From positions 28,947 to 92,946 of the forward strand of contig CAZBFM010000002.1 in NCBI GenBank assembly GCA_964491455.1: a DNA stretch of 64,000 bases, written 5' to 3'. Position numbers and translations under genes: made by a program. This document shows positions 15,019 to 32,957 of the stretch, in pieces. This DNA is from an uncultured Candidatus Saccharibacteria bacterium. Its GTDB lineage: Bacteria > Patescibacteriota > Minisyncoccia > 2-02-FULL-40-12 > GWA2-44-9. Numbering within the stretch: position 1 is the first letter of the stretch; each line of letters begins with the position of its first letter. Below the pieces are notes generated by a model. The model saw only the letters and a program-made list of their open reading frames with translations, was not told the origin of the DNA and ran no database searches.

Positions 15019-15048
15019 AACTGCCTCCTAAAAAGAGAAGAACGAAAA

Positions 15049-16050: not shown

Positions 16051-16137
16051 GTCCTCTAGTGTACTATACGGCGGTCGAGATACAATCGTTCATGCAATAT
16101 TGTACAAACGAAAAGAAATAGCTACTATCGCCTTGCT

Positions 16138-17718
16138 ATGGCAACACCAACAATCCTCAAACTCACGGGACAGACACTCACCACACACGACGTACAGGCG
16201 GTCGTTACCCACCCTCGCCTGCAGGTGCGCGTTGCACCCGCCGCTCTCATTGGAATGCGCAAATCCAAAAAACTTCTCGATGCCACTCTCACCGAGCGCA
16301 TTATCTATGGCGTCAATACAGGTTTTGGTCCAATGGCCTCTCATATTATTGGTCGCGATGACCTCCTACAACTCCAGCTCAATCTTGTGCGCAGCCACTC
16401 CAGTGGCATCGGAGCTCCGATTGATTCCAACCTCGTACTTGCGGCAATGGTCATTCGCCTCAACACACTCTCAAAGGGATTTTCGGGCGCGTCCGATGCC
16501 GTCGCCCATCAACTCGAAAAGTTTATCAACGCCCGCATCACTCCTATCATCCCAGAGCACGGCGCTGTTGGAACAAGTGGCGACCTCGTGCAACTCGCAC
16601 ACATTGCACTTGCCCTCATTGGAGAAGGTGAGGTGCACTACCGCGGCGAACGCATGCCGACCGCAACTGCGCTCGCAAAAGAGAAAATTGCACCACTTAC
16701 GCTCGGACCAAAAGAGGGGCTAGCACTGATCAATGGCACCGCTGGAATGACGGCTGTTGCTGCAATCCTCTGTGAAGCGGCGGCACGCATTGTTGCGCTC
16801 AGCCTCCGCACCGGTGCGTGGTCGCTTGATATCGTGGGTGGATTCGACGACAGTATTAGCGAGCGCATTCATGCGGTACGCCCACACGCCGGCCAACGAG
16901 TCGCCGCTGCTGCCCTTCGAGGTCTCGTCGCCAAAAGTGGCCGCATGAAAAATCGCGAAGCATTCAACAAGAAGCACGCTATTTCCGATGAGGTCCACAA
17001 AATCGCCGAAGATGTTCAGGAGATGTACTCCCTTCGATGCATACCGCAGATTGTTGGGCCCGTGCTTGATGCGTTCTGGAGAGTCCGTAGCGACGTCACC
17101 ACGGAAATGAATTCTGCCACTGACAATCCGATTGTGGACTGGGAGCGTGGCGTCTTTCTCCATGGAGGCAACTTTCATGGTGAATACATCGCCGCTGCAG
17201 TCGACTACCTCAAGACTGGCATGATCAAGCTCACTATGCTCAGCGAGCGGCGCATCAATTACTTCATGAATCCTGCAATCAATCATCGATTGCCTCCATT
17301 TGTGAATCTGCACACTCCTGGACTTACCCTCGCGCTCCAAGGCATGCAATTTGTCGCCACCTCCACAGCAGCACATAGTCAATCGTTGGCATTCCCCCAT
17401 CATATTCACTCCATTCCAACAAATGGGGATAACCAAGATGTTGTGAGCATGGGATTTGATGCAGCCCTCATCGCCACCAAGGCAATTGAAAATGCATATG
17501 CCGTCCTTGCTATTGAGATGGTGACACTCGCTCAAGCCACCGATGCTCTGAAGTGCTCTCGCGAACTATCGCCCGAAAATCAGCAACTCTATCGGGCAAT
17601 TCGCAAGCTCACTCCCCCCGTGATCGAAGATCGCCCACTTGCACCTGATCTTGAGCGCATCGTCGCGTTTCTCAAGTCATCACCAACACTGCCCATCGAC
17701 TCACTCAGGAAGCAATGA
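16138..17718 (+). CDS. Aromatic amino-acid ammonia-lyase/aminomutase family (HAL/PAL/TAL, MIO-dependent) homolog.
   Basis: Family-typical GTSGDLVQLAHIAL with Thr-Ser-Gly at the MIO-forming triad (canonical Ala-Ser-Gly), plus NTGFG and the conserved C-terminal fold. 526 aa. Confidence 0.8.
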   Translation: MATPTILKLTGQTLTTHDVQAVVTHPRLQVRVAPAALIGMRKSKKLLDATLTERIIYGVNTGFGPMASHIIGRDDLLQLQLNLVRSHSSGIGAPIDSNLVLAAMVIRLNTLSKGFSGASDAVAHQLEKFINARITPIIPEHGAVGTSGDLVQLAHIALALIGEGEVHYRGERMPTATALAKEKIAPLTLGPKEGLALINGTAGMTAVAAILCEAAARIVALSLRTGAWSLDIVGGFDDSISERIHAVRPHAGQRVAAAALRGLVAKSGRMKNREAFNKKHAISDEVHKIAEDVQEMYSLRCIPQIVGPVLDAFWRVRSDVTTEMNSATDNPIVDWERGVFLHGGNFHGEYIAAAVDYLKTGMIKLTMLSERRINYFMNPAINHRLPPFVNLHTPGLTLALQGMQFVATSTAAHSQSLAFPHHIHSIPTNGDNQDVVSMGFDAALIATKAIENAYAVLAIEMVTLAQATDALKCSRELSPENQQLYRAIRKLTPPVIEDRPLAPDLERIVAFLKSSPTLPIDSLRKQ

Positions 17719-19199
17719 CACCGCGCGACTTGCAAACGTTTTTTGATGCTCACGCACAACGCAATTGGGTGAAGCATTACTTCTCGTTTGACGTTGCGAC
17801 ATTCGAGCGCCTCCTCCACCACCGCGACGAAACCTTTTGGAATACTCTTGGCGCTCGTAGGGCTCTCAAGTTATTTCACGACGCAGCTGTGCGCGTACCC
17901 GCATATAAGGACTTCCTTCGCACCAATCGCATTCGCCATGCAACAGTAAAAACAATCGCAGACTTTGCGCGCGTGCCCCGCACCACCAAGGAGAATTACA
18001 TCAACCGCTATGCACTCAGCGATCGTTGCTGGGATGGCATACTCTCCGCTACCAGCATCATCGCGATGAGCTCCGGGACGAGTGGCGAGCCAAAATTCTG
18101 GCCCCGAGGTGGCTTCTCTGAATTCGAAGCGGCGATCATTCACGAGCTCACGTATCGTTCACTTTTTTCAATTCACAAAAAGAGAACGCTTCTCGTTATT
18201 GGGTTCCCCATGGGTGTGTATGTATCGGGCATCGCCACACTTCTGCCGAGCTGGATGGTAGCGCAGCGAGACTACGACTTGACGATTGTGGCCGCCGGCA
18301 ACAATAAAGTCGACATGCAACGCATCACGCAACACCTCCGAACTGCATTCGATCAAGTCGTTCTTATTGGCCACCCATTCTTCATTAAAGATGTACTCGA
18401 AACGGGCGCAGCGGAAGGTGTTGATTGGAGCACAATCACCACGTCACTTCTGTTCTGTAGTGAAGGATTTAATGAACAGTGGAGGGATCACGTTGCATCT
18501 GTCGCTGGTAGTACGCCCGACTCGGTTCGCATATTCAACACGTATGGCTCGTCGGAGACACTACTCATTGGTCACGAAACACCAGTAAGTATTGCCCTCC
18601 GTAAAACCATGAACGACACATTAACGCCGAACATATTCCAGTACAATCCATTCTTGCGATACCTCGATGTCACCGATGGCATTCTCAACTTTACTCTCAA
18701 CAGCGGAGTGCCCCTCATTAAGTACGACCTCGCCGATGGCGGGACCATCCTTCCTTTTTCAGAGGCAACACAACATCTTTCACCATCGCTTCGTCGGTCT
18801 GCGTGGAAGCTTCCGTTTGTTACGCTCGATGGTCGGCGTGACAATACAATTATCTTCTATGCGGCCAATATCTATCCAGAACACATTCATGCCGCACTCA
18901 ATGACAAGAAATTTTTGCGCTCCATAACGGGCAAATTTGCGATGCGAAAAGAGTACCTGAAAAATAAGGATGAATTCCTAGAAATACACGTAGAGCTTCG
19001 CCCTCGCCAAAAAGTCACCGCAGCACTCGCCACTGCAATTGCCAAGCACGCCACCTCGCGACTATTAGATATCAATATGGAGTACAAATTTCTTTGGTCG
19101 AACCTCGACAAAGACATCCGCCCGCGCGTCATTTTGCACCCCTACCAATGCGAGCCCTATTTCCGCGCCGGACTAAAACCTCGCTATATCATCAAATGA
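17715..19199 (+). CDS. PaaK-like adenylate-forming enzyme (phenylacetate-CoA ligase / F390 synthetase family).
   Basis: SSGTSGEPKFWPR P-loop-like AMP-binding motif, about 490 aa. Its ATGA start overlaps the lyase stop, indicating translational coupling. Confidence 0.65.
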   Translation: MTPRDLQTFFDAHAQRNWVKHYFSFDVATFERLLHHRDETFWNTLGARRALKLFHDAAVRVPAYKDFLRTNRIRHATVKTIADFARVPRTTKENYINRYALSDRCWDGILSATSIIAMSSGTSGEPKFWPRGGFSEFEAAIIHELTYRSLFSIHKKRTLLVIGFPMGVYVSGIATLLPSWMVAQRDYDLTIVAAGNNKVDMQRITQHLRTAFDQVVLIGHPFFIKDVLETGAAEGVDWSTITTSLLFCSEGFNEQWRDHVASVAGSTPDSVRIFNTYGSSETLLIGHETPVSIALRKTMNDTLTPNIFQYNPFLRYLDVTDGILNFTLNSGVPLIKYDLADGGTILPFSEATQHLSPSLRRSAWKLPFVTLDGRRDNTIIFYAANIYPEHIHAALNDKKFLRSITGKFAMRKEYLKNKDEFLEIHVELRPRQKVTAALATAIAKHATSRLLDINMEYKFLWSNLDKDIRPRVILHPYQCEPYFRAGLKPRYIIK

Positions 19200-20341
19200 C
19201 CCCCGTCGACCACCCAACGCTCTTTACGCCACGCATGCCAGCGCATCAATCTGCACTGAGGAAACTGCGCTCCGATGTATCGGTGCGCGTCATTGATACC
19301 TACGAGCACCAACTCGCTGAACTGTACGTGATCCAAAACCCTGCTGTCATTGGGCTGCCACCAGCAGAGCTTGCAACTCGTATAGCGACATACGTAGCTC
19401 GTACTGCGCGACGAGCCACGCTTGAGCAGCAAGGAACCTGGGCCTGGCTTCCCTGGCAGCGAACACTCGTGCATATTCTTCCTGAACGAGAATTCTTTCT
19501 CGTTCGAACCAATCGCAATGGAAATCTCATCACACCACAAGAACAACAACGGTTCTATCGGTGCGTCGTCGGCGTAGCGGGACTATCCGTTGGCGGTAGC
19601 ATTGCCCTCACCCTCGCACTCCAGGGTGGCGCTCGAACTATTCGAATTGCGGACTTCGATTCACTTGAGCTCTCCAACACCAACCGCATACTAGCGGGAG
19701 TACATGAACTCGCCACGCCAAAAACAACCATTGTAGCTCGTCGCATTTGGGAGATGAATCCGTATGCACGCATCACCATCTTTCAAGATGGCCTCACTGA
19801 AAAGAACATACCGTCATTCATGCGAGGCCTTGATGTTATCGTCGACGAGATGGACCAAATGGCAATCAAACAGCTCATTCGCGAACAAGCACGTGCCAAT
19901 AAAGTCGCGCTCGTATCGACTGCCGATAATGGAGATACGAGCGTCGTGGACGTGGAACGCCACGACCTCAAGCAGACTCCGTACTTCCTGGGTCGACTTG
20001 GAGCGACGTCCGTTAAGCAATTCCACTCGATGAATAAACTTCAAATCATCCGCGAAATCACACGTCTCATGGGCCCTGAAAATGTTCCTCCTCGCATGCA
20101 ATCGTCTCTTTCAGAAATCGGCAACACCCTCGTGTCAGTCCCTCAGCTCGGTGGCACCGCACTCATGGGCGCAGCGGCAACCGCATACTGCGTACATCGC
20201 ATCGCCGCTGGCCTTCCGCTCCCATCTGGTCGCTCCATTATTTCTCTCGATGAGAAGCTCGAGCCCGGGCACCAAGCAAGCGCTGCAAAAAATCGTCGCG
20301 CAAAAAATACTCGCATCTTTGCAAAGAACCTCGGCCTGTAG
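19196..20341 (+). CDS. E1-like (ThiF/MoeB family) adenylyltransferase with an N-terminal extension of about 120 aa.
   Basis: Rossmann motif VVGVAGLSVGGSIALTLALQGG...IRIADFDSLELSNTNRI, which is the E1 signature. ATGA overlap with the upstream ligase. Confidence 0.7.
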   Translation: MTPVDHPTLFTPRMPAHQSALRKLRSDVSVRVIDTYEHQLAELYVIQNPAVIGLPPAELATRIATYVARTARRATLEQQGTWAWLPWQRTLVHILPEREFFLVRTNRNGNLITPQEQQRFYRCVVGVAGLSVGGSIALTLALQGGARTIRIADFDSLELSNTNRILAGVHELATPKTTIVARRIWEMNPYARITIFQDGLTEKNIPSFMRGLDVIVDEMDQMAIKQLIREQARANKVALVSTADNGDTSVVDVERHDLKQTPYFLGRLGATSVKQFHSMNKLQIIREITRLMGPENVPPRMQSSLSEIGNTLVSVPQLGGTALMGAAATAYCVHRIAAGLPLPSGRSIISLDEKLEPGHQASAAKNRRAKNTRIFAKNLGL

Positions 20342-20409
20342 CACGTATCCGCAGATGCCATACTACCGTTTTTTTTGGCACGATTTCGCGGTATACTAAA
20401 AATCATCAC

Positions 20410-21444
20410 ATGCGTACCGCCATCGAACACATTCTCGCAGCGGCCGTACTCGCTCCCTCCGGAGACAATTGCCAACCGTGGCGTTTTGAAGTTGCACGCG
20501 ACACCATTGATGTGCACCTCGTGAGTGAGCGAGACACATCGCTCTATGGCGTCGGTCACTTTGCATCCTACATCGCACACGGAGCGCTCTTAGAGAATAT
20601 CGCCATAGCGGCGCGCGCGCAGGGAGTTCAGGCAACTATTTCGGAATTCCCTACGCCACACAATCAGCTCCACACCGCACGAATAACACTCTCGTCGATA
20701 CCCACGCGCCATGATCCTCTAGCCAGTGCGATTGCCGAGCGTTGCTCGAATCGAAAACCATACCTCTCCACACCCTTAACACCGCACCAACGAGATGTGC
20801 TTCGTGAAGCGGGAGGAAACGACACGATCTTCATCGAAGACGAATTAACTCGAAAACTTCTTGCATCCTCGCTGGCGGCAAATGAGAAGGTGCTCTTCGA
20901 AAATAGAGCGATGCATACGTTCTTCTTCGATCACATGCTCTGGACTGCACATGCGGCAGCAGCGAATCCCATTGGATTTCATCCAGCGTCACTCGAGCTC
21001 CCCGCACCAATTTATGGCATATGGCCAGCGTTTCGACATTGGCCAATCATGGCCACCTTAACGTCTCTTGGATTTGCGAATGCAATCGCTTTCGGGAACG
21101 CCCCGATCTATGCTTCAGGAGCAGCTCTCGCCTGTATTACAATCGTCGAGCGATCTGCGCGCGACTATCTTCACAGTGGCCGCACACTCCAACGCCTCTG
21201 GCTAACCGCCACTAACCTTGGGTTGAGTGCACAAATCCTCACAGGCATCCCGCTCCTTATGAATGCAGTTCATGCACGCACACCATGCCTTTCACCAAAG
21301 CATGCGCGCTTCATCGAACGGCACTACGCTCATCTACAACACCTTGTTGGAGCTCCACATGCAGAGATCGCTTTTTTTCTTCGAGTTGGTGTCAGCCCTA
21401 AGCCAAGCGCTCGCACGCCCCGTGCAGCACCCACCATCACATGA
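20410..21444 (+). CDS. Extended nitroreductase-family (FMN-dependent) protein.
   Basis: N-terminal PSGDNCQPWRF nitroreductase motif. Its 344-aa length suggests two nitroreductase-like lobes. The stop overlaps the histidine kinase start (ATGA). Confidence 0.6.
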   Translation: MRTAIEHILAAAVLAPSGDNCQPWRFEVARDTIDVHLVSERDTSLYGVGHFASYIAHGALLENIAIAARAQGVQATISEFPTPHNQLHTARITLSSIPTRHDPLASAIAERCSNRKPYLSTPLTPHQRDVLREAGGNDTIFIEDELTRKLLASSLAANEKVLFENRAMHTFFFDHMLWTAHAAAANPIGFHPASLELPAPIYGIWPAFRHWPIMATLTSLGFANAIAFGNAPIYASGAALACITIVERSARDYLHSGRTLQRLWLTATNLGLSAQILTGIPLLMNAVHARTPCLSPKHARFIERHYAHLQHLVGAPHAEIAFFLRVGVSPKPSARTPRAAPTIT

Positions 21445-23099
21445 CCACACCGATGTCACTCGGACTTATTGGAAGCTCGCTTACTAGTGGATTAGGCAAT
21501 CTCGATCTTGTCGCGATTCTCATCGCCGTCGCGGCGCTCCTCACGCTTGGATTTATCGTGTACTTCAATAATCCGAAGAGTGCAACGAATCGAGCATTCC
21601 TCATGTTCTCGCTCATGACCGTTGCATATGGTTCCGCCAATTTTGCAAGCTACCAAATAACGGACCCCTGGCAGGTACTATGGCTGTTGCGGATCACGAT
21701 GTTTTCGGCCGTCTGGCATGCTGCATCTTTTTTCTATTTATTTTTTGTATTTCCTCGTCAACAAGCCGCACTGCCACGCTGGATCACACTCGGTGCGTTT
21801 CCCGTTGCGATGGTGACGAGCGCACTCACACTTACGCCATATGTGTTTCGCTCTATCCAAGTCGTCTCCCAGGTGGGCTCGGTAACCAATCCAGTGCGCG
21901 GTCCTGCTATCCCGTTTTTCGGAGCCGTAGCGGGCGCATTTGTGCTCGCTGGTCTCGCAGAACTTCTCAAAAAAACGTTCGCGGGTGAAGAGATTCAACG
22001 AAAGCAGGCGCGCGTCATTCTCGCGGGTGCTTCTATGACATTTTTACTCATTCTTGTCTGTAATGTGCTCCTGCCGCTGGCATTCAACATACTGAGATTC
22101 ATACCGCTTGTTCCTATCTTCTTTCTTCCCTTCGTCCTCTTGACCGCACATGCGATTCGCAAATATCGATTCCTGGAAACAAAGGTACTTGCAACCGAAA
22201 TGATCGCGCTCGTCTTGGTCATTCTCAATATGATCGAACTAGTCATCGCAAAGGATCTTGGAACTCTTATATTGCGCGTGGGCGTGTTCTCGGCTGTGCT
22301 GGCATTTAGCATCATGCTCATCAAGTCCATTGTCCGCGAGGTCAACCAGCGCGAACGACTTCGAGCGCTGTCTGACGACCTCCAGAAAGCGAATGCGAAG
22401 CTTACGCAACTGGACACGCTTAAATCTCAATTCTTGTCATTTGCCTCGCATCAACTTCGGACGCCACTAACAGCAATCAAGTGGCAGGCTCAGCTCTTAC
22501 GTGACGGCACCGTGGGGCAACTCCCAGAGAAAGCACTGGAAATTGCGCATGGGATTGAAGAATCGTCACAGCGCATGCTCGAGCTCGTTTCGGAATTCCT
22601 CAACCTCCGAAAACTCGAAGAGGGAAAAATGGAATACTCATTTGAGCCCACCGATATCGCCGAGCTCACATCGCGCATCGTAGAAGACATTCGACCGCTC
22701 GCCTCCCATAAGGGCCTCGAGCTCACATTCGTGAATCATGCTTCGCAATCACTCTGCTCAGTTGACCGACAAAAATTCTCGCAAGTCGTTCAAAATCTCG
22801 TCGATAATGCCATCAAATACACCGACCATGGCAGCGTTCAGATCTTCATAAACAACACCGCGGAAAAAAGGATTCGCATCGTGGTGACAGATACTGGCCA
22901 TGGGATAGACCCAACCGTTATTAGCTCGCTCTTTGAGCAGTTTGTTCGCGATAAGAAAGAAGCAAAAACAATTGAAGGCACAGGGCTTGGCCTTTACATC
23001 GCCAAGCAGATGATGGACGCCCACCAGGGAAGCATCCTTGCCTCGTCTCCGGGAAAAGGAAAGGGCAGCACATTCACGATTGAACTGCCAACGCTCTAG
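21441..23099 (+). CDS. Sensor histidine kinase with a multi-pass membrane sensor domain.
   Basis: At least 6 TM helices, then an H-box SHQLRTPLTAI, an N-box, DTGHGIDP (G1) and GTGLGLYIAKQ (G2). Confidence 0.85.
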   Translation: MTTPMSLGLIGSSLTSGLGNLDLVAILIAVAALLTLGFIVYFNNPKSATNRAFLMFSLMTVAYGSANFASYQITDPWQVLWLLRITMFSAVWHAASFFYLFFVFPRQQAALPRWITLGAFPVAMVTSALTLTPYVFRSIQVVSQVGSVTNPVRGPAIPFFGAVAGAFVLAGLAELLKKTFAGEEIQRKQARVILAGASMTFLLILVCNVLLPLAFNILRFIPLVPIFFLPFVLLTAHAIRKYRFLETKVLATEMIALVLVILNMIELVIAKDLGTLILRVGVFSAVLAFSIMLIKSIVREVNQRERLRALSDDLQKANAKLTQLDTLKSQFLSFASHQLRTPLTAIKWQAQLLRDGTVGQLPEKALEIAHGIEESSQRMLELVSEFLNLRKLEEGKMEYSFEPTDIAELTSRIVEDIRPLASHKGLELTFVNHASQSLCSVDRQKFSQVVQNLVDNAIKYTDHGSVQIFINNTAEKRIRIVVTDTGHGIDPTVISSLFEQFVRDKKEAKTIEGTGLGLYIAKQMMDAHQGSILASSPGKGKGSTFTIELPTL

Positions 23100-23137
23100 C
23101 TGGAATTCGTCATTATTACTGTGGTATACTTGGGGGT

Positions 23138-23533
23138 ATGGACAACGCAAAACCCCTCATTCTCGTTACCGATGATGACGCGAGCATTCGGAATATTCTC
23201 CACATAAAACTGGAAGCCGCTGGCTTTCGAGTATCCGAAGCAACGAATGGACAGGAAGCGATCGATTTTTGCAAAAAGGAAAAGCCGGCACTTATCGTTA
23301 TGGACGTGGGGATGCCGGTCATGTCAGGCACAGAGACAGTAACTGCAATAAAGAAAGACGATGCGATAAAGGATATTCAAATTATATTCTTAAGCAATTT
23401 CGGAGAGGAAAACGAGCTCAATGCGTGGCTTGATCAGAAGTTCGCAAAAGAACTCGGCGCTGTAGATTACATGAAAAAGTCGGAGGATATATCCAGGATC
23501 ATCGAGAAGATAACGTCTCTCGTTCATGTCTAG
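23138..23533 (+). CDS. Stand-alone response-regulator receiver (CheY-like).
   Basis: ILVTDDDASIRN...LIVMDVGMPVMSG...KK carries the receiver Asp/Lys signature. 131 aa. Confidence 0.8.
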   Translation: MDNAKPLILVTDDDASIRNILHIKLEAAGFRVSEATNGQEAIDFCKKEKPALIVMDVGMPVMSGTETVTAIKKDDAIKDIQIIFLSNFGEENELNAWLDQKFAKELGAVDYMKKSEDISRIIEKITSLVHV

Positions 23534-25256
23534 CGATGGCGCAAAAACTGTTCTTATCATCGAAGATAACTTCTTTATGGCGCAACTATTGCGCGAGAAG
23601 CTGGAACACCAAGGCTTTGCGGCAATCCATGCTCAAAATGGGAACATCGGCGTCGATGAAGCGCTCAAGAAAACCCCAGCGCTAATACTCGTCGATATCC
23701 CCCTCTCCGGCGACATGGACGGCTTTGCAACACTTACTGCACTCCGAGGCATCCAGTCCCTCGAACACGTACCCGTCCTCACGCTATTCACCACAAAGGA
23801 TCAAGGCGATATCGAAAAGCTGGAAAAAATAGGCTTTGCGGAGTACCTCGTAAAAGCAGATGCAAACGCCGATGCCATCGTTCTGAAAGTCGTCGAGCTC
23901 ATCACCGGAGTTTTACAAAAATCGACCAAGATCATCGCGCCGGGCGAAAAAGAACTGAAGACGGTGCCACCGAAGGTACGCGCAGTGATAGCAGAATCAG
24001 GCAACGAAGGATCACAGTATGTCGCGCGCGCCGCAACTATCAAGGCGGAAGTAGCAACCATGTTGAAACTTCCCGAAGCGGAAATATCCATCATCACACT
24101 TGTCGATGACATGATGATATTTGCATTTCTAGCCAGAGCGTCAGACGTTCACCTTGAGCCGTTTGAAGAGACTCTCGTTGCTCGTATGCGTATCGATGGG
24201 ATCCTGAGCGACGAATTCACATTCCCTAAGGCGCTCCACGCCGGCATCATTTCGCGCATCAAAGTATTAGGCGGCATGCGCACCGATGAACACCAAGCCG
24301 CTCAAGATGGACGCTTCCAGATGACAATCCCAGATATTCAAAAGCAATTCGATGTTCGCGTCAGTATTATCCCGACATATTACGGTGAAAATGGAGTCTT
24401 GCGTTTACTCGCAGAACAAACATCTATCAGCTCACTTGATAATTTAGCCTTTACTGATTTCGATCGTGCTCGCATCCGCAAGGCCGTCAAAACACCCTAC
24501 GGCATGATCCTCGCTACAGGACCTACGGGATCCGGAAAAACCACCACGCTCTACACCATTCTACGAGAGCTCAACACGCGAGCAGTCTCCGTCATCACCA
24601 TCGAAGATCCGATTGAGTACTCACTCGAGGGCGTCGATCAAATACAGGTCAACACCCGTACGGGCCTCACCTTTGCCACCGGTCTTCGATCTATCCTTCG
24701 ACAAGACCCCAACATCATTATGGTTGGAGAGATTCGCGATGAAGAAACCGCATCGATCGCAATCAATGCCGCGCTCACGGGACACAAGCTCTTAAGCACC
24801 ATCCACACGAACGACGCGGCAACAACACTTCCCCGCTTGCTTGATATGGGCATCGAGCCATTTCTTGTGGCGTCAACGGTCAATGTTGCCGTCGGACAGC
24901 GTTTAGTTCGCATGATATGCAATGAGTGCAAGGTACCCCGACGGATCACAGAGGGCGAGTTTAATGCTCTCAAAGAAAACATTCCGGAATCGATTCTCGG
25001 AGATCATCACGATTACTTTCAGGGCAAGGGCTGCGATGCGTGTGGGCAAACGGGCTATCGCGGACGTATGGGTATCTATGAGATACTAGAGATGAGCGAC
25101 TTCATTCGTGAGGCGCTGATGAGGCGCGCGGACGCTGGAGAAATTAAAAAGATTGCAGTCAAAAATGGCATGACCACGCTCCTAGAAGATGGATTCAAAA
25201 AAGCAGTGGAAGGTCGCACCACCATCGAAGAACTACTTCGCGTTATTCATGAATAA
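23526..25256 (+). CDS. pilB: Type IV pilus/T2SS assembly ATPase (PilB/GspE family) with an N-terminal receiver domain.
   Basis: An N-terminal REC fold (KTVLIIEDNFF...LILVDIPLSGDMDG) precedes a GspE core. The core carries Walker A GPTGSGKTTT, the Asp box and His box (GEIRDEETA...TIHTNDA), and a tetracysteine motif CNEC...CDACG. Confidence 0.85.
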   Translation: MSSDGAKTVLIIEDNFFMAQLLREKLEHQGFAAIHAQNGNIGVDEALKKTPALILVDIPLSGDMDGFATLTALRGIQSLEHVPVLTLFTTKDQGDIEKLEKIGFAEYLVKADANADAIVLKVVELITGVLQKSTKIIAPGEKELKTVPPKVRAVIAESGNEGSQYVARAATIKAEVATMLKLPEAEISIITLVDDMMIFAFLARASDVHLEPFEETLVARMRIDGILSDEFTFPKALHAGIISRIKVLGGMRTDEHQAAQDGRFQMTIPDIQKQFDVRVSIIPTYYGENGVLRLLAEQTSISSLDNLAFTDFDRARIRKAVKTPYGMILATGPTGSGKTTTLYTILRELNTRAVSVITIEDPIEYSLEGVDQIQVNTRTGLTFATGLRSILRQDPNIIMVGEIRDEETASIAINAALTGHKLLSTIHTNDAATTLPRLLDMGIEPFLVASTVNVAVGQRLVRMICNECKVPRRITEGEFNALKENIPESILGDHHDYFQGKGCDACGQTGYRGRMGIYEILEMSDFIREALMRRADAGEIKKIAVKNGMTTLLEDGFKKAVEGRTTIEELLRVIHE

Positions 25257-25279
25257 ACCATAACTACAAGCGGAGGGAT

Positions 25280-26356
25280 ATGAAATGGTTTGACTCACTC
25301 AGCTCATTGGGATTTCGCTTGTCACTCAAAGACAAGATGCTGTTTGCGCGTCACATGGAAATGATGACCCGCTCGGGCATGCAAATACTCGACGCCCTCG
25401 AGATTCTCAAGAAGCAAACCAAATCCAAACCATTTATCTCAATGGTCGACCATCTCATCGAAGATGTTCGCAATGGCCAGAACTTATCTGTTGGGATGCA
25501 GCGCTATAAGAATGTGTTCGGTGAATTCTTCATCAATCTTATTCGCGTTGGAGAATCATCAGGAACACTTTCGGAAAATTTTGCCTACCTCGCCACCGAG
25601 CTGGGCAAGAAATCTGAGCTTCAGAAAAAAATTCGTGGGGCAATGGCGTATCCTCTCGTCATTCTCTTTGCCACGTTTGGCATATCGGGAATTCTTTCGT
25701 TCGTCATATTCCCAAAAATTCTTCCCGTTCTTCGAAGCCTCAACACAACACTCCCTCTCTCTACTCGTATTTTCATTTCCATATCGGAATTTATGATTTC
25801 CAATGGACTCCTTCTCTTCGGAGTTGTTATTGGCGGCATCGTGCTTGGGACCCTCCTGTTACGCATCGGTGCGATCCGGCTCTTCTGGCATCGTATTATC
25901 CTCGCAACACCTTTTGTGAATCGCATGTCAATCGACATTAATATTATCAGCATATCTCGCACACTCAATCTCCTCCTCCGCGGAGGCGTCAAAATAGTCC
26001 AGGCACTAGAAATCACCTCCGACACACTAACGAATCTCGTATATCAGACTGAACTACGGATCATTGCGCAAGCAGTGCAACGAGGAGAACCCATGAGTAA
26101 ATCGATGATCCTCAATGAGCGACTCTTCCCTCCTACGTTTAGTCAGATGGCCGCAGTTGGTGAAAACACGGGAAAGCTCGATGAGACGCTCGTGTTCTTA
26201 GCGGACTTCTATGAAAGCGAAATGGATAATTCGACAAAGAGCATGAGCAACGTATTAGAGCCGGCGATGTTGCTGGCAATGGGAGGCATTGTCATGTTCG
26301 TCGCCATCTCGATCATCACACCCATTTATTCGGTCACGCAAACACTTGGTCGCTAA
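25280..26356 (+). CDS. pilC: Type IV pilus inner-membrane platform protein (PilC/GspF family).
   Basis: Two GspF-type repeats, 3 TM segments, and a position immediately after pilB. Confidence 0.8.
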   Translation: MKWFDSLSSLGFRLSLKDKMLFARHMEMMTRSGMQILDALEILKKQTKSKPFISMVDHLIEDVRNGQNLSVGMQRYKNVFGEFFINLIRVGESSGTLSENFAYLATELGKKSELQKKIRGAMAYPLVILFATFGISGILSFVIFPKILPVLRSLNTTLPLSTRIFISISEFMISNGLLLFGVVIGGIVLGTLLLRIGAIRLFWHRIILATPFVNRMSIDINIISISRTLNLLLRGGVKIVQALEITSDTLTNLVYQTELRIIAQAVQRGEPMSKSMILNERLFPPTFSQMAAVGENTGKLDETLVFLADFYESEMDNSTKSMSNVLEPAMLLAMGGIVMFVAISIITPIYSVTQTLGR

Positions 26357-26357
26357 T

Positions 26358-28115
26358 ATGAAACAACGAACGGGACAACGGGGGTTCACCGTCCTTGAGA
26401 CGTTAATCGGAATCGCGATTCTTTCTATCGTGAGCACCGCTGTGTATTTTTCGTATTCCAATATCCTCGATATCGTTCAGGCGGCGCAGTACAACAACGC
26501 GGCGCTAAGCATCATGGAATCAAACGTCGAATCAGTTCGAAATATGCGCTACGAAGATATCGGCGTCATTGGCGGAGCTCCCGCGGGTCTCATCCCCCAG
26601 GTAACATCCGTGACGCTCGGTACAACGACCTACACGCTCCACACGTATGTTCGCAATATTGACGATTCCTTCGACGGAACTCTGGGTGGAACGCCCAACG
26701 ATACCGCCCCAGCTGATTATAAGCTCGTTGAATTCCAAGTTACCTGCGATAGTTGCACTCGCTATCGCGAGCTCACCATGGCAACCTATGTAGCCCCAAA
26801 GAATCTCGAGAGTGCCAGCAAAAATGGCAACCTCTTTGTTCGCGTGCTCGATGCGTCGGGTATTCCCCTGAGTGGCGTGACTGTCCGGGTTACGAATAAC
26901 AAGGTGACACCCGCTATCGATCTCACGGATACGACGAATACGAATGGCATCCTGCAACTCGTCGGGATAGCTACGAGCTCTTCAGGGTATCACCTAGTTG
27001 CGTCAAAAACCGGCTACAGCACCGATCAGACTTATCCCATAGGCGCACCTGCGAATCCGGTAAAGCCGGACGCCACGGTCGCGAATCAACAGCTTACCAT
27101 CTCAACTCTTGCCATCGATGCACTTGGGTCACTACGCATTCAAGCCCGCACAGCATATTGTCAAAACGTGCCCTCTTTTGATTTTCTTATTACCGGAGCA
27201 CAGCTCATTGGCACGAAACCGGACGTGCCTAAATATTCCGTACCGCTCACCACAGACACCAATGGGTCGTACGTGAACCAAAGCCTCGAATGGGATTTCT
27301 ATTCGATTCGCGCAACCGATGCTTCCTATGATCTCGCTGCCACCGTCTCATCGCTCTCGTTCTCACTAGCACCGAGTGAGTCAAAAACTCTCTCGTGGAT
27401 GCTCGCTGATAAATCAAGCAATAGCACAACGCTATCAGTCGTCGATCAATCAGGGACTCCAATCTCGGGTGCAACGGTGCGAGTCACAGGCACCTCCTAT
27501 GATCAATCACGCACCACGAGCTACTATCCGTTCACACAAACAACCTGGGCAAGCAATGAGTTCACCAGCAAAAGCACACTCATGAGCACGGCAACGCCCG
27601 GATTGCTCACGCTGGGTATGATTGCTGGATCGTACGCGAGCGCTAGCAATGAGTGGCTCATTTCGAACACGATAGATCTTGGCACCTCCAGCACATCACT
27701 CGGGGTTCTACGCTGGTCTCCCATAGTTCAACCTCCGACCGTAGGCACAGGTGCGTTGCAGATACAAATCGCAGGCAACTCTGATAACGCGACATGGAAT
27801 TGGGTCGGCCCTGATGGAACACCTGGAACATTTTTCTCGACACCTGGGCAACTCATTCCTGAAAGTCTTCGTGGGTCCCGCTACCTCCGCTACCGCGTCG
27901 TCATGGACACTGCTGACGTCAATCAATCACCTCAACTCGATGATATATCGCTGGAATTTTCTTCTGACTGCGTTCCCCTTGGGCAAGTCTACTTTAATGG
28001 CCTCGCCCTTGGCAGCTACACCGTGACCATTTCTCATCCGAATTATCAGGCGTTTACCGGGACCCTCGTCATCTCAAGCGACTGGAGCCGGTCTACATTC
28101 ACACTCTTACCATGA
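26358..28115 (+). CDS. Large prepilin-like protein (about 585 aa; pseudopilin or putative tip adhesin).
   Basis: Class III signal peptide KQRTGQRGFTVLETLIGIAIL (G/FTxxE cleavage-methylation motif), followed by Ig-like/carboxypeptidase-regulatory-like beta domains. The start was moved to the ATG at 26358, just after the pilC stop. Confidence 0.7.
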   Translation: MKQRTGQRGFTVLETLIGIAILSIVSTAVYFSYSNILDIVQAAQYNNAALSIMESNVESVRNMRYEDIGVIGGAPAGLIPQVTSVTLGTTTYTLHTYVRNIDDSFDGTLGGTPNDTAPADYKLVEFQVTCDSCTRYRELTMATYVAPKNLESASKNGNLFVRVLDASGIPLSGVTVRVTNNKVTPAIDLTDTTNTNGILQLVGIATSSSGYHLVASKTGYSTDQTYPIGAPANPVKPDATVANQQLTISTLAIDALGSLRIQARTAYCQNVPSFDFLITGAQLIGTKPDVPKYSVPLTTDTNGSYVNQSLEWDFYSIRATDASYDLAATVSSLSFSLAPSESKTLSWMLADKSSNSTTLSVVDQSGTPISGATVRVTGTSYDQSRTTSYYPFTQTTWASNEFTSKSTLMSTATPGLLTLGMIAGSYASASNEWLISNTIDLGTSSTSLGVLRWSPIVQPPTVGTGALQIQIAGNSDNATWNWVGPDGTPGTFFSTPGQLIPESLRGSRYLRYRVVMDTADVNQSPQLDDISLEFSSDCVPLGQVYFNGLALGSYTVTISHPNYQAFTGTLVISSDWSRSTFTLLP

Positions 28116-28708
28116 GGCTTTACGGATTCACCCTTATAGAAATACTCGTGGCAATGACGATCACGTCTATGACCCTTGTTTTTGTAACGTATTTCTCACT
28201 CAATATTTCGAGCTTTGGAACTGACCTAAATTCTCGACTAGAATCAGAATACGAGCTTCAGCTGGCCCTTCGCACCATGTCATCGGAAATTAGATCTATG
28301 GGACCGGGTAGTAATGGCGCTTACCCCATAGCCACAGCAACGGCAACGACGTTTATGTTTTATAGCGACATCGATGGAGATGGTTCATTCGAGCAAGTGC
28401 GCTACTTCCTCGAGGGAACGGTTCTTAAAAAAGGAGTGACTCGAGCAACAGCAACGGAGCCGATCCTGTATCCGTCAGCAAACGAAACAGTCATTGAAAT
28501 CGCGCACTACCTTACCTCGACATCTCTCTTTTCCTTCTTCGCTGAAGGCCATCCTGACATTATTGCCCCGCTCGCAACGCCCGTGACACTCTCTCAAATT
28601 CGCCTCGTGCGTATTACCGGCACTGTTGATCGCGACACCATGCAGCCGCCACTCCCAAGCACGCTCTCAACGTCTATCACCATTCGAAATTTAAGAGGCG
28701 AAATATGA
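28112..28708 (+). CDS. Minor pilin (prepilin-type N-terminal domain).
   Basis: MRLYGFTLIEILVAMTITS prepilin motif. Confidence 0.7.
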   Translation: MRLYGFTLIEILVAMTITSMTLVFVTYFSLNISSFGTDLNSRLESEYELQLALRTMSSEIRSMGPGSNGAYPIATATATTFMFYSDIDGDGSFEQVRYFLEGTVLKKGVTRATATEPILYPSANETVIEIAHYLTSTSLFSFFAEGHPDIIAPLATPVTLSQIRLVRITGTVDRDTMQPPLPSTLSTSITIRNLRGEI

Positions 28709-30147
28709 CAACAAGCACGCTCGCACCTCAAAAGGGTCAGATGACGCTCTATGTCCTGATATTTAGCGCAGTCGCTCTTGTCGTGCTCTCAGGTTTCGTA
28801 CTATGGGCAGATAGTAATATACGAATTGTATTTCGTGACGTCGATAAATCGCAAGCCTTCATGGCGTCCGAGGCGGGCATTGAATATTATCGCTGGCATC
28901 TTGCGCATGCGCCAAGCGATTATAAAGACGGAACCCAGTCCAGTGGTCCCTACACACACGACCTGAAGGACAAGGATGGAAACGTGATTGCCGCATTCTC
29001 GCTTGGCATAACCGCACCACCAACCGGATCAACTGTCGTCACCCTGAATTCAACGGGAACGGTAGCCGCGAATTCCACGGTGAGCAAAATCATTGAGGCC
29101 AAGATGGCAATCCCATCATTTGCGAAGTATGCCGCTGTCATCGGTTCAGAAGTACGATTCGGTGAAGGAACCGATCTCTATGGCCCCATTCACAGCAATG
29201 GAGGCGTACGCATGGATGGTATCGCCCATAACATGGTTACCAGCGCGGTGGCAACGTACGACGACCCCGACCATAACGGTGGCAATGAATTTGGCGTTCA
29301 CACGCATATATCACCAGTCGATCCGCTGCCACCAGCAGCCACACCGAAACGAAGTGACATTTTTATGACAGGACGATCGTTTCCAGTCGCACCCGTTGAT
29401 TTTCTTGGCATAGCACAAGACCTCTCTTCAATGAAAACCATTGCGAATGCTAACCAATCATACTGGAAGCCATCGGGTGCGAAAGGATATGAAATTATAC
29501 TGAAAACAAATGACACCTATGACCTCTATAAGGTCACTTCGCTCGTCGCGGCGCCATCAGGATGTACAAACTCCCAAAATCAAACCGGTTGGGGCACCTG
29601 GAGCATCTCGGCCAAAACACTCATCGGCAATAAGCCGATTCCATCCAGCGGTGTTATCTTTGTCGAAGACGACGTATGGGTAAGCGGTCAAATCTCTACA
29701 GCACGCGTTACGATCGCTTCCGCCAGATTCCCCGACAATGCTAGTACTCGCTCGAGTATCACCATTAACAACGACCTGAAGTACTCGTCGTATTCCGGCT
29801 CAGATGTCATCGCGTTGATCGCTCAAGACAACATAAATATTGGCATGGTATCAGCAACAACGCTCCGCATTGATGCCGCCCTCATGGCAGAAAACGGGAG
29901 AGTGGGACGTTACTATTACAATCCCCCCACCAACAAGAACAATTGTGGACCTTATCATTCACGCAGTTCCATCACAAGCTTTGGCATGCTCGCTTCAAAT
30001 CAACGCTATGGCTTTGCGTATACGGACGGAACCGGCTACATCACTCGCACCATCATTTACGATGCTAATCTCTTATATGGACCACCTCCGAGCTTCCCAC
30101 TCACGGCTGACTTCTACACGCCGATTTTCTGGAACGAAAAAAAGTAG
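28705..30147 (+). CDS. PilX-like or pilus-associated protein with an N-terminal hydrophobic anchor.
   Basis: QKGQMTLYVLIFSAVALVVL pilin-like N-terminus lacking Glu5, followed by a roughly 440-aa extracellular region. Confidence 0.5.
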   Translation: MTTSTLAPQKGQMTLYVLIFSAVALVVLSGFVLWADSNIRIVFRDVDKSQAFMASEAGIEYYRWHLAHAPSDYKDGTQSSGPYTHDLKDKDGNVIAAFSLGITAPPTGSTVVTLNSTGTVAANSTVSKIIEAKMAIPSFAKYAAVIGSEVRFGEGTDLYGPIHSNGGVRMDGIAHNMVTSAVATYDDPDHNGGNEFGVHTHISPVDPLPPAATPKRSDIFMTGRSFPVAPVDFLGIAQDLSSMKTIANANQSYWKPSGAKGYEIILKTNDTYDLYKVTSLVAAPSGCTNSQNQTGWGTWSISAKTLIGNKPIPSSGVIFVEDDVWVSGQISTARVTIASARFPDNASTRSSITINNDLKYSSYSGSDVIALIAQDNINIGMVSATTLRIDAALMAENGRVGRYYYNPPTNKNNCGPYHSRSSITSFGMLASNQRYGFAYTDGTGYITRTIIYDANLLYGPPPSFPLTADFYTPIFWNEKK

Positions 30148-30268
30148 AATATGTGGACATCTCGAAGAGCGTTTGCTGATATACTGTACGCATAAGGTCG
30201 ATAGCTGGGACGCTCCATGCATGGCGCCTCAGTGATATGTATTCAAGTGTAATAAATTATTTTTATCT

Positions 30269-30718
30269 ATGTTCGCAAAGAAACAACAAAAAGGTTTCAC
30301 GCTTATCGAAATCTTGGTAGTCATCGGTATCATCGCAATCTTGGCAGCAGTTGTTATTGTCGCCTTGAACCCGGCTCGTCAGTTCGCACAGGCTCGCAAC
30401 ACGCAGCGCTGGAGCAACGTCAACACGATCCTCAATGCAGTTGGCCAGCGCATGGCTGACAATCGTGGCATCTGGAAGACAACCTGCGGATCCGCAACAG
30501 TTACACTTCCCGCAACCGCAACGCATATCGGAAGCGGAGCATCTTTGACTGATTTGGAGTCCTGCATCGTAGACACCTACGTCTCAACGATGGTTATGGA
30601 TCCGTCAGACGGTACAAATGCTGATACCGGCTACACAATCGTTAAGTCAACGAACGGCCGTATCACCGTCGCAGCTCCTGCAGCAGAGCTCGAGGAAGTC
30701 ATTTCCGTCACTCGCTAA
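30269..30718 (+). CDS. Type IV major pilin candidate.
   Basis: KGFTLIEILVVIGIIAILAAVV canonical prepilin leader with Glu5, 149 aa, and a strong terminator immediately downstream. Confidence 0.8.
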   Translation: MFAKKQQKGFTLIEILVVIGIIAILAAVVIVALNPARQFAQARNTQRWSNVNTILNAVGQRMADNRGIWKTTCGSATVTLPATATHIGSGASLTDLESCIVDTYVSTMVMDPSDGTNADTGYTIVKSTNGRITVAAPAAELEEVISVTR

Positions 30719-30744
30719 CACTCGTTCGAGTAGGAGGAATACAT

Positions 30745-30775
30745 CACAACGCCCGAAAGGGCGTTGTGTGTTTGT
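30745..30775 (+). terminator. Rho-independent terminator after the major pilin gene.
   Basis: acaacgccc-gaaa-gggcgttgt stem-loop followed by GTGTTTGTG. Confidence 0.65.
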
Positions 30776-30789
30776 GATATACTTGGCAT

Positions 30790-32418
30790 ATGCAAATCAT
30801 GCGAGCATTCTTCGTAACGCTATGCATACTGGTGATCGCTCCAACGGCATTCGCACAAGAATATTTTAGTTTTAATCCTGATTATTCTCGAAGCATTCTT
30901 GTTGCAACGTCTGACGCTCTTTCTGAAGTATTTCTTCCGCTCAATGATTATCTCGGCGGATATGATTTTTGGCTAAGCAATCAGTCAACTCCTGGCGATG
31001 CCACGTTCACCATAGGAACGCTCAGTGGCGAGACCATTGATTCGCAACTCATCTCACTCCCCGCGATCGCAGACAATGAGACGGGATCACGCATACACAT
31101 ATCGCTCCCCGCACAAATCCGCGTCAGTCCTCAGACTCCCTACCGGATCACCATTCAAAGCGCCGCTCCGACACTTCGCATATACTTCTCCGATGCGACG
31201 CAACTCCTAGCCCACAACGGTTCGCCAACTGCGATGTACGCGGGTGGACGTGCCCGCATAGGTGATGAAGATATGGGATTTAGTTTTAAATTTTCTCTGC
31301 ATGAATCAACCGAACGCACCCCACCCATTCTATCAGGTGTATCCGTAGAGCAGCTCTCCCCATCAGAAGCACGACTATCCTGGTATGCCAACGAACCCGT
31401 TGATCACAACCTCATATATAATGACAAAGCGCTCACGTGGTCGTCTGAATATTCGTCGTGCGTAAGCCCCGGTCAACCATGTTCTGTATATTTTGACATT
31501 CAAACCGCCACTACCTATTCCTACACTCTGACCATACGCGACGTCTGGGGTAACACAAGCTCATTCTCGGGAGTATTCATTTCGGCAGGAGAAGCGTCAT
31601 CATCAATTGCACCATCCCCGTCGCCAACAGCGACTAGCACACCAGTAGCCACCTCGACACCAGCTCCAGATGTACAACCACCAATCATCTCCAAGGCACG
31701 ACTTGTCACCGCAACAGCCAGCTCCGCTACATTCGCATGGACAACGAACGAGGCGGCGACAAGCTCTGTGGTAACGCACATTCTTCCTTTTATAATTACC
31801 GCCGGCTGGAATACTGACACAACACTAGAGCTTGAACACTTCGTTACCGTTTCAGGTCTACCCGCTGACACTTTTTTCCGCGCAACGATATCATCGCGCG
31901 ATGCAGCAAATAACGACACGACTCACTACCTACAGTTCACAACACCTTCTGGCGTATCCGTCGCATCGTCGACTCCTACACCAAACGCGACACACACGCC
32001 CTCACCTCTGATCGTCGAACCGGTAATCACAGGCGCTCCGAATGCCCCCCAACTTCGCTGGGCGCCTCCGCTCAATGGAGAGCCTTCCGATGGCTATCGA
32101 ATTGATATATTTGACGCAAACAACAATCTCGTGCGAACGATATCGGTTGCTTCCGGGAGTCATACCGCTGCCCTTGGAATTTCCCCGAGTAGCACTCAGC
32201 GCATCGTTGTATATGAAAATAACAATGGCGTCTATCAAAAGACAGGAGCACCGACCATACTCAAGGGAGCTGCAACTTCAAAGCGCACCTCCTTGTCGTA
32301 CGTTGGGCCAGCGCTCATACTCTTAGGGATCTTCGTGGGCGCGTGGTTGCGAGTGCGCAGGAGAGCAGCTCATGCGCCAACACCCCTTCCACCCACTACA
32401 AAGGTCGAATCACGATAA
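30790..32418 (+). CDS. Secreted, C-terminally membrane-anchored surface protein with FN3-like repeats and Ser/Thr/Pro linkers.
   Basis: Signal peptide MQIMRAFFVTLCILVIAPTAFAQ, a PSPSPTATSTPVATSTPAPD linker, and a C-terminal TM helix plus basic tail (LILLGIFVGAWLRVRRR). Confidence 0.6.
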   Translation: MQIMRAFFVTLCILVIAPTAFAQEYFSFNPDYSRSILVATSDALSEVFLPLNDYLGGYDFWLSNQSTPGDATFTIGTLSGETIDSQLISLPAIADNETGSRIHISLPAQIRVSPQTPYRITIQSAAPTLRIYFSDATQLLAHNGSPTAMYAGGRARIGDEDMGFSFKFSLHESTERTPPILSGVSVEQLSPSEARLSWYANEPVDHNLIYNDKALTWSSEYSSCVSPGQPCSVYFDIQTATTYSYTLTIRDVWGNTSSFSGVFISAGEASSSIAPSPSPTATSTPVATSTPAPDVQPPIISKARLVTATASSATFAWTTNEAATSSVVTHILPFIITAGWNTDTTLELEHFVTVSGLPADTFFRATISSRDAANNDTTHYLQFTTPSGVSVASSTPTPNATHTPSPLIVEPVITGAPNAPQLRWAPPLNGEPSDGYRIDIFDANNNLVRTISVASGSHTAALGISPSSTQRIVVYENNNGVYQKTGAPTILKGAATSKRTSLSYVGPALILLGIFVGAWLRVRRRAAHAPTPLPPTTKVESR

Positions 32419-32935: not shown

Positions 32936-32957
32936 GGCGTGTACAAACTATCTGCTG

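Follow-up and report, generated by a model that had tools for sequence, protein, structure and literature searches.

Why would a bacterium with few genes to spare keep a set of small-molecule enzymes, a membrane sensor kinase and type IV pilus genes side by side? The question is raised by positions 16138–30718 of a 64,000-nucleotide stretch of DNA (hereafter the window) from an uncultured Candidatus Saccharibacteria bacterium (contig CAZBFM010000002.1), a member of the candidate phyla radiation (CPR). Bacteria of this radiation have tiny genomes and almost no secondary metabolism, and they rely on type IV pili both to locate a host and to stay attached to it. The original prediction took the run for a single array of 15 co-transcribed genes that includes a complete pilus module, and suggested a regulated or post-translationally modified pilus. 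Comparison with related genomes leads to a different description: the region is a recurrent three-module neighbourhood of Paceibacteria-type CPR bacteria, not a single fused operon. As to its function, we hold with moderate confidence that the kinase (G5) senses an oxazolone-like molecule of the cell's own making and would control pilus extension through phosphorylation of the receiver domain of the pilus ATPase PilB. A cassette wired in this way to a kinase and to a receiver-bearing motor would show how CPR bacteria time pilus extension.

Gene content and its conservation in related genomes

Every open reading frame (ORF) of the run lies on the plus strand and is free of internal stops, as had been claimed; the genes number 12, not 15, and a co-directional thirteenth (G13) lies beyond them. 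Such a run is unremarkable by itself, and its significance comes from the comparison with related genomes. The first five genes, with lengths in amino acids (aa), encode four enzymes and the kinase:

16138–17718, plus strand: G1, aromatic amino-acid ammonia-lyase of the 4-methylideneimidazole-5-one (MIO) type, 526 aa (Pfam Lyase_aromatic over the full length, E = 1e-155)
17715–19199, plus strand: G2, PaaK-like adenylate-forming ligase, 494 aa (AlphaFold/Foldseek; weak NCBIfam PaaK match)
19196–20341, plus strand: G3, ThiF-like ATP-dependent cyclase, 381 aa (Pfam ThiF; NCBIfam NF005901)
20410–21444, plus strand: G4, flavin-dependent oxidase of the nitroreductase superfamily, 344 aa (NCBIfam NF005901 and Acg-family models)
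21441–23099, plus strand: G5, polytopic seven-transmembrane (7TM) sensor histidine kinase, 552 aa (Pfam HisKA_7TM, HisKA and HATPase_c)

They are followed by two receiver domains and the pilus genes:

23138–23533, plus strand: G6, stand-alone receiver response regulator with no output domain, 131 aa (Pfam Response_reg, E = 5e-22)
23526–25256, plus strand: G7, fusion of a receiver and a PilB/GspE-type pilus assembly ATPase, 576 aa (Pfam Response_reg at 9–111, T2SSE at 188–572)
25280–26356, plus strand: G8, PilC/GspF platform protein, 358 aa (two Pfam T2SSF matches, E = 1e-53)
26358–28115, plus strand: G9, large minor pilin, 585 aa (Pfam N_methyl and CarboxypepD_reg; N-terminus RG/FTVLE)
28112–28708, plus strand: G10, minor pilin, 198 aa (Pfam N_methyl; N-terminus YG/FTLIE)
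28705–30147, plus strand: G11, conserved pilus-locus protein, 480 aa (one membrane helix, residues 15–33)
30269–30718, plus strand: G12, major type IV pilin, 149 aa (Pfam N_methyl, E = 1e-9; N-terminus KG/FTLIEILVV)
30790–32418, plus strand: G13, secreted protein with fn3-like repeats, 542 aa (weak Pfam fn3; signal-like helix 3–21, anchor 502–520)

From G1 to G12 the spacings are, in order, -4, -4, +68, -4, +38, -8, +23, +1, -4, -4 and +121 nt, and G13 follows G12 after +71 nt. The junction check bears out the 4-nt ATGA overlaps described at 17715, 19196 and 21441 and the 8-nt overlap at 23526; it also shows 4-nt overlaps at two more junctions, 28112 and 28705, and a gap of a single nucleotide at 26357. 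The upper limit of 70 bp put on the gaps is right for those of 68, 38 and 23 nt and wrong for the 121-nt gap (30148–30268) that precedes the pilin gene G12.

The kinase gene thus joins the enzyme genes through its 4-nt overlap with the oxidase gene. Its HisKA and HATPase_c domains, with a conserved H-box histidine (H337), identify G5 as a histidine kinase, and its hydropathy profile reveals several membrane helices without any large external domain. In the stand-alone receiver G6 an acidic pocket (D12–D14 and D56) can be read off the translation. The receiver of G7 is intact, with E13, D14, D57 and K110 invariant across 19 homologues, and the receiver–PilB fusion itself is found in 119 of the 120 best G7 homologues, for which every taxon name given is a Patescibacteria lineage. 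The Pfam scan of the locus genes finds no DNA-binding regulator, and for this reason control of the pilus by this two-component system would be post-translational.

The PilB-type ATPase, the PilC platform and the pilins with G/FTLIE-type N-termini indicate a type IVa-like pilus. The module is not complete within the window: the Pfam scan finds no PilD, PilT or PilM/N/O among the ORFs of the 64 kb, and these components may be encoded elsewhere in the genome. G11, for which there is no Pfam or NCBIfam match, is syntenic in nearly every related pilus locus. G13, with its C-terminal anchor, is syntenic after the pilin gene in many loci. A gene for a Peptidase_C39_2-like cysteine protease (32396–32935, minus strand) converges on G13 with a 23-nt overlap; the protease and fn3-like genes are syntenic with the pilus operon in locus L071, and the fn3-like gene is so in many more loci. 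Both products may be pilus-associated.

The first line of evidence that the enzymes and the kinase belong together is the conservation of their order. A scan with one genome per species yielded 64 ligase-anchored loci, 59 after removal of duplicates. It should be noted that this and the following counts come from metagenome-assembled genomes (MAGs) with simple ORF calling, and that the loci are not phylogenetically independent. A string of ligase, ThiF, oxidase, an optional methyltransferase or alpha/beta hydrolase, and 7TM kinase is complete in at least 38 of the 59 Patescibacteria loci; in most of the others it is cut by contig ends. The kinase gene comes after the oxidase gene in most related loci, and the first three contexts read had the order lyase, ligase, ThiF, oxidase and 7TM kinase with no pilus genes. 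The enzyme at the head of the string is exchangeable. A distant ligase clade (32–35% identity) has an amino-acid dehydrogenase of the Glu/Leu/Phe/Val type in place of the lyase, and a further set of loci has a class IV aminotransferase. All three enzymes strip the alpha-amino group from an amino acid, in keeping with a ligase that receives an acid of amino-acid origin. Pilus genes are less constant partners: in the fetched flanks of the 59 loci PilB/PilC genes are present in 8 and a pilin-like gene alone in 7 more, most loci being pilus-free.

Conserved genes of about 350–440 aa without a Pfam match sit in or beside the ThiF/oxidase/kinase cassette of variants that have no ligase or lyase (L072, 2188–3267; L087, 4115–5233; L098, 6013–7056; L073, 684–3282), and may be alternative acylating enzymes. 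Many of the cassette loci (L009–L070) are recorded as "uncultured Candidatus Saccharibacteria", "Gammaproteobacteria" or "Bryobacteraceae"; for Patescibacteria-type cassette loci such labels look like taxonomic mislabels or binning errors.

The second line of evidence concerns the pilus operon. The order G1 to G11 recurs in a Candidatus Paceibacterota MAG (Gw_Eff_bin_126, L007; 96% identity) and in loci L021 (75%) and L015 (54%), and the conservation check proposed with the original prediction supports the view that the linkage of enzymes, two-component system and pilus genes goes beyond accident. Elsewhere it is rearranged: other Patescibacteria lineages have it in other gene orders (L057, L069, L066, L070 and L131). 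The order is kinase, receiver, PilB, PilC in L057 and L069; in L066 and L070 the cassette and kinase are inserted between PilBC and the pilins, that is, inside the pilus locus. Pilin-like genes stand close to the kinase, a few genes away at most, in L054, L055, L058, L059, L061 and L063. Receiver–PilB served as an independent anchor, for which loci with at least 5 kb of upstream sequence were counted, the cassette being scored as present when ThiF and/or the oxidase occurred together with the 7TM kinase. Cassette and kinase lie within 10 kb upstream in 13 of 19 receiver–PilB loci and in none of 12 receiver-less PilB loci (Fisher p = 1.4e-4), a contrast that is partly phylogenetic because the receiver–PilB loci form one clade.

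The third line of evidence comes from the closest PilB relatives that have no cassette (L071, L074 and L075). Their kinases are 56–59% identical to G5, but only from residue ~220 on; the polytopic N-terminal membrane sensor part is unrelated to that of G5. The upstream neighbours differ as well in both loci with enough DNA, being a reductase and a methyltransferase in L074 and a SET-domain protein in L071. The membrane sensor thus changes along with the enzymes, whereas kinase core and pilus operon do not, a pattern that a pair of product and receptor would predict.

Transcription units of the array

The claim of one transcript can be examined through promoter and terminator motifs. The window holds six copies of the extended -10 motif TGNTATACT, where 0.67 would be expected, and at five of the six sites an ATG that opens an ORF stands 6–9 nt further on (11695–11703, minus strand; 23122–23130, plus; 30775–30783, plus; 41920–41928, minus; 59071–59079, minus). 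This spacing is typical of leaderless mRNAs and, to judge from the motif, implies that such mRNAs would be widespread in the organism. Related CPR loci show a like pattern with the variants TGnTATAAT or TGnTATTAT. The elements that concern the array are as follows:

20342–20409, plus strand: G3–G4 gap with a weak hairpin and a T8 run, then a plain TATACT 12 nt before the G4 ATG
23122–23130, plus strand: extended -10 element TGGTATACT, 7 nt before the G6 ATG, of the leaderless type
30177–30185, plus strand: extended -10 element TGATATACT, 83 nt before G12, inside the 121-nt gap
30745–30768, plus strand: intrinsic-terminator-like hairpin after G12, 10-bp stem with 7 G-C pairs, -21.3 kcal/mol
30775–30783, plus strand: extended -10 element TGATATACT, 6 nt before the G13 ATG

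The -10 elements before G4 and G6 are kept in L007, L021 and L015 amid otherwise diverged intergenic sequence. In the G3–G4 gap of L021 a hairpin and T-run are followed by GGTATACT, and in that of L015 a strong 10-bp G+C hairpin is followed by TGATATACT. More broadly, of 25 pilus operons that open with a receiver gene, 15 have the pattern TGnTAnnnT-N5-10-ATG in frame with that gene, the expected number being 0.5. The Rfam scan finds no riboswitch or leader RNA in the array. As had been predicted, a strong terminator follows the major pilin gene: the hairpin at 30745–30768 is the best plus-strand terminator-like site within 15000–33500.

One obligate transcript is unlikely, since conserved leaderless-type promoters (TGnTATACT) precede G4, G6, G12 and G13. 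The single 15-gene operon must be given up for this reason and on account of the gene count, the 121-nt gap, and the hairpin with T-run between G3 and G4; genes on the opposite strand between kinase and pilus operon in many relatives likewise oppose it. The array is best read, from its motifs, as the sub-operons G1–G3, G4–G5, G6–G11, G12 and G13, with read-through possible and not required. An opposite-strand gene pair (~160 aa each) recurs between the 7TM kinase and the receiver-first operon in L072-L073, L087, L091 and L095, both genes being annotated as CBS-domain genes in L072 and L073.

Separate promoters raise the question of whether the modules are merely neighbours. The cassette and the 7TM kinase could be one unit, by which, for example, an envelope or stress lipid is made and sensed, and the pilus operon with its receivers could be driven by another kinase, the proximity being due to genome compaction or shared ancestry. 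The conserved promoters before G4, G6, G12 and G13 are compatible with this, as are the opposite-strand genes (the CBS pair, HicAB) that stand between kinase and receiver gene in many relatives, the mostly pilus-free flanks of lyase-clade ligase loci, and two loci (L071 and L074) that retain kinase, receiver and PilB without the ThiF/oxidase cassette. We nevertheless consider it unlikely that the modules are unrelated. An adjacency of 13 in 19 is far above the ~2% expected for random placement in a 1-Mb genome, and there are three or more distinct gene orders in which the linkage is found. A kinase is almost always immediately upstream of the receiver-first operon, no other kinase is present at the locus, and the kinase core stays with the pilus operon when the sensor and the enzymes swap. 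Adjacency and the conserved neighbourhood are also what suggests that G5 pairs with G6 and G7.

The enzymes, their predicted product and its proposed sensing

What the four enzymes make can be approached through their families. The full-length domain, the catalytic Tyr and the X-Ser-Gly triad place G1 among the MIO lyases and aminomutases. Across 42 orthologues Y57 and H87 are invariant and the triad T146-S147-G148 is conserved, its first residue being Thr in 41 of the 42, where Ala is usual. The best NCBIfam score of G1 is that for the tyrosine ammonia-lyase (TAL) FlxA (573 bits, cutoff 700), ahead of hutH (465 bits, cutoff 539). Its S86-H87 region aligns without gaps with S82-H83 of the Pseudomonas putida histidine ammonia-lyase (HAL). 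The C-terminal motif NGDNQDVVSMG is the same as in the tyrosine aminomutase (TAM) SgTAM, and seems to stand in place of the E414 motif of HAL (QEDHVSM). By these residues tyrosine is the most likely substrate and histidine a possible one; phenylalanine is unlikely because His87 is invariant. Histidine catabolism of the HutH kind was rejected for G1, with a score well under the curated cutoff and neighbours that are not catabolic.

G2 has no Pfam match, and its score against the phenylacetate-CoA ligase model TIGR02155 (37 bits, cutoff 646) does not support that specific function. Its AlphaFold model (predicted local distance difference test, pLDDT, 84.9) best matches, in Foldseek searches of the PDB, the acyl-coenzyme A (CoA) ligase BT_0428 and PaaK1/2 (E 1e-18 to 1e-20, template modelling score 0.5–0.6). 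The fold, the phosphate-binding loop (SSGTSGEPK, with S119, S120, G121, T122 and G124 invariant in 25 homologues) and the C-terminal lysine (K488, equally invariant) identify a member of the acyl-CoA synthetase, non-ribosomal peptide synthetase and luciferase (ANL) superfamily. Homologues exceed 368, and those with a taxon name are nearly all Patescibacteria. Phenylacetate catabolism was rejected, the PaaK score being far under the curated cutoff and the neighbours not catabolic. The acceptor of the predicted adenylate may be CoA or an amine, and G2 may accordingly form either a CoA thioester only or the amide itself.

G3 and G4 are more informative. By profile match they correspond to the N- and C-terminal halves of an oxazolone synthetase of the TrzS/Rv1355c type, encoded by genes 68 nt apart. 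G3 matches positions 13–350 of the 722 of the Rv1355c family model NF005901 (E = 3.2e-98, 330 bits), and G4 positions 376–712 (E = 4.4e-46); the sum of the two, 487 bits, compares with a whole-protein cutoff of 476. Fused ThiF–oxidase forms occur within the same CPR family (L057, L058, L061 and L063). The closest PDB sequence match of G3 is TcdA, the t6A cyclodehydratase, followed by ThiF; aligned with TcdA, G3 retains the Gly-rich nucleotide loop, the DxD...SNTNR motif and the VDEMD aspartates. TcdA cyclodehydrates the N-carbamoyl-threonine of t6A, i.e., an N-acyl amino acid. A role of G3 in thiamine or molybdopterin synthesis was rejected, as those models score 45–70 bits against 330 bits for the Rv1355c model. 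G4, which matches the Acg-family model as well (E = 2e-41), has conserved the motif PSGxNxQPW and residues R111, N114 and R115, and its best PDB match is Acg (2YMV), the reference structure that was also used by the authors of TrzS.

Members of the family have been characterized by experiment. Rv1355c of Mycobacterium tuberculosis is TrzS, which turns N-acyl tryptophan into an N-acyl oxazolone in two steps, first a cyclisation that needs ATP and then a desaturation that needs O2; the split pair TyzB/TyzC and the fused OxzB, likewise experimentally shown oxazolone synthetases, carry out the same two steps, TyzB/TyzC in either order, and in the known systems the substrate is supplied by an acyl-CoA N-acyltransferase (PMC12856293, PMC10404671). 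Their discoverers describe the physiological role of oxazolones as unresolved and suggest signalling (PMC12856293).

G1–G4 thus probably make, to judge from their homologues, an amino-acid-derived small molecule of the oxazolone type. The analysis shows which domains the genes encode, that catalytic residues, gene order and linkage are conserved, and where the promoter motifs stand. In the scheme that we infer, which extends to substrates, product, ligand sensing, phosphotransfer partners and the effect on PilB, G1 would deaminate tyrosine (or histidine) to an arylacrylic acid, which G2 would adenylate and couple to an amino acid through the amino group of the latter. By homology, G3 would cyclise the N-acyl amino acid with ATP and the flavin oxidase G4 would desaturate the ring. 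The lipophilic product or an intermediate would be sensed by G5 within the membrane; G5 would autophosphorylate at H337 and pass the phosphate to the receiver of G6 and/or that of G7 (D57). Phosphorylation of the receiver would modulate PilB, and hence pilus extension, without a transcription factor. That G5 is the receptor of the cassette product is suggested by the 4-nt gene overlap, the conserved string and the joint swap of sensor and enzymes.

The same enzymes admit other roles, the first of which is suggested by the pairing of lyase and ligase. The chromophore of photoactive yellow protein is supplied by a tyrosine ammonia-lyase and a ligase, an arrangement that a TAL-like lyase beside an acid-activating ligase resembles, and arylidene-oxazolones are conjugated chromophores. 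The cassette might accordingly build a prosthetic group, such as a coumaroyl- or arylidene-oxazolone, whose binding would make the 7TM kinase a light or redox sensor, and the tight coupling of the oxidase and kinase genes agrees with this. It is a very unlikely role, in our view: the dehydrogenase or aminotransferase that replaces the lyase elsewhere would yield non-conjugated 2-oxo acids, and the membrane part of the kinase has no conserved Cys or Lys for covalent attachment.

The regulated or modified pilus of the original prediction fares unevenly. Regulation fits the intact N-terminal receiver on PilB; modification, by which the enzymes would act post-translationally on the pilin or another pilus protein, is unsupported and highly improbable. 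ThiF/E1-like enzymes can adenylate protein C-termini, as in MccB and ubiquitin-like systems, and the genes are co-directional and adjacent both in the window and in three relatives. G3 and G4, however, belong to a family of small-molecule oxazolone synthetases, and the fetched flanks of most ligase-anchored loci are free of pilin genes, yet the kinase is retained. The pilin gene stands 9 kb away from those for the enzymes, with a promoter and a terminator to itself, and G12 ends in ...VISVTR, with no C-terminus of the Gly-Gly type. Pilin modification was rejected as the principal explanation, the constant partner of the enzymes being the kinase, not the pilin.

A further possibility is that the product is an effector, exported against hosts or competitors as an antimicrobial or manipulating lipid, and that the kinase responds to a cue from the host instead. 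N-acyl tyrosine derivatives can act as antimicrobials, and for oxazolones the role has yet to be settled (PMC12856293). In two distant loci a gene for an AI-2E-family transporter, a candidate exporter of the cassette product, stands directly upstream of the dehydrogenase–ligase cassette (L057, 7730–8740, and L069). The overlap of oxidase and kinase genes and the joint swap of sensor and enzymes are more easily explained if the product is the ligand, and without a transcription-factor output the kinase could not regulate production of the molecule. We rate an exported effector as quite unlikely.

Several observations weigh against a self-made signal acting on PilB. Most lyase-clade ligase loci have no pilus gene in the fetched flanks, and this suggests that the kinase need not act on PilB alone; the contrast between receiver-bearing and receiver-less PilB loci owes part of its strength to phylogeny. 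G1 combines HAL-like with TAL/TAM-like features and scores under both curated cutoffs, and its substrate can be named only tentatively. G2, to judge from its best structural matches, which are CoA ligases, could be a plain CoA ligase. An N-acyltransferase of the OxzA/TyzA/TrzA type is seen neither in the array of the window nor in the conserved string of the 59 loci. Finally, the oxidase homologues require O2, which may be scarce for many CPR bacteria.

A wider form of this signalling reading can be put forward tentatively: a CPR circuit of lineage-specific amino-acid-derived oxazolones, each with a dedicated 7TM kinase that acts by direct phosphorylation of the pilus extension ATPase. If the circuit is real, it would govern attachment to the host, motility or the uptake of DNA. 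No autoinducer-like system has been described before in these episymbionts, if so; the circuit would also give bacterial oxazolones their first physiological role and the type IV pilus motor a new mode of regulation. That a lyase, a dehydrogenase or an aminotransferase can come first in the string suggests a whole set of related signals, and a kinase gene that overlaps the synthetase genes makes the idea of oxazolone signalling directly testable. The literature searches made turned up no paper on oxazolones, this cassette or receiver–PilB in CPR bacteria.

The rest of the window contains several other features. Three tandem paralogues on the minus strand (49154–51229, 51233–53308 and 53312–55489; 691, 691 and 725 aa), each with three Laminin_G_3/concanavalin-A-like lectin domains, are candidate surface adhesins. 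A complete 16S rRNA gene lies at 42375–43881 (minus strand), with no 23S or 5S gene detected in the 64 kb, and the rRNA genes thus appear unlinked. The N- and C-terminal halves of transketolase are encoded by separate genes (33816–34808 and 35621–36484, both minus strand), and a membrane H+-pyrophosphatase-like gene (676 aa; 11757–13787, minus strand) was recognised by eye rather than by domain search; both fit a CPR genome.

Comparison with known systems

The nearest biochemical relatives of the cassette are OxzAB of Pseudoalteromonas rubra, TyzACB and TrzAS, among which, as among the relatives of G3 and G4, both split and fused ThiF–oxidase forms exist. The differences lie in what surrounds this pair. 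A deaminating enzyme and a PaaK-like ligase occupy here the position of the N-acyltransferase, and for this reason the acyl group would be amino-acid-derived, not fatty acyl. Moreover, the cassette overlaps a 7TM histidine kinase gene and often neighbours a pilus operon, and it resides in a CPR bacterium with a reduced genome rather than in an actinobacterium or proteobacterium.

An MIO lyase gene directly upstream of one for an acid-activating ligase is also known from flexirubin initiation (FlxA/FlxY) and from the supply of photoactive yellow protein. FlxA is the best NCBIfam match of G1 and FlxY a faint match of G2, both with scores well under the curated cutoffs. Downstream of the two genes, a ThiF-like protein and a flavin oxidase are encoded here, not a polyketide synthase or an apoprotein.

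On the side of the pilus, PilG/PilH of the Pil-Chp system and DrdR of Xanthomonas, which acts on PilB/PilT (PMC13507683), are receiver proteins without a DNA-binding output that act on pilus motors post-translationally, as is proposed here. The receiver of the present locus differs in being covalently fused to PilB, and the sensor upstream of it is one of the classical histidine kinases rather than a chemosensory system of the CheA type. PilS/PilR likewise links a polytopic membrane histidine kinase genetically to pilus genes; PilR, however, is a sigma-54 enhancer-binding transcription factor, whereas the present locus has no DNA-binding regulator.

In its logic, the locus resembles the synthase–receptor pairs CqsA/CqsS, LuxM/LuxN, LqsA/LqsS and AgrBD/AgrC, in which a signal-making gene adjoins that for a membrane-embedded kinase without a large external domain. 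The likeness put forward is one of logic. In the present locus, where signalling itself is a prediction, the output would not run through a phosphorelay to a transcription factor but end at a receiver that is part of the pilus ATPase. Between lineages the enzymes and the sensor part change in concert, as expected for diversifying pairs of signal and receptor.

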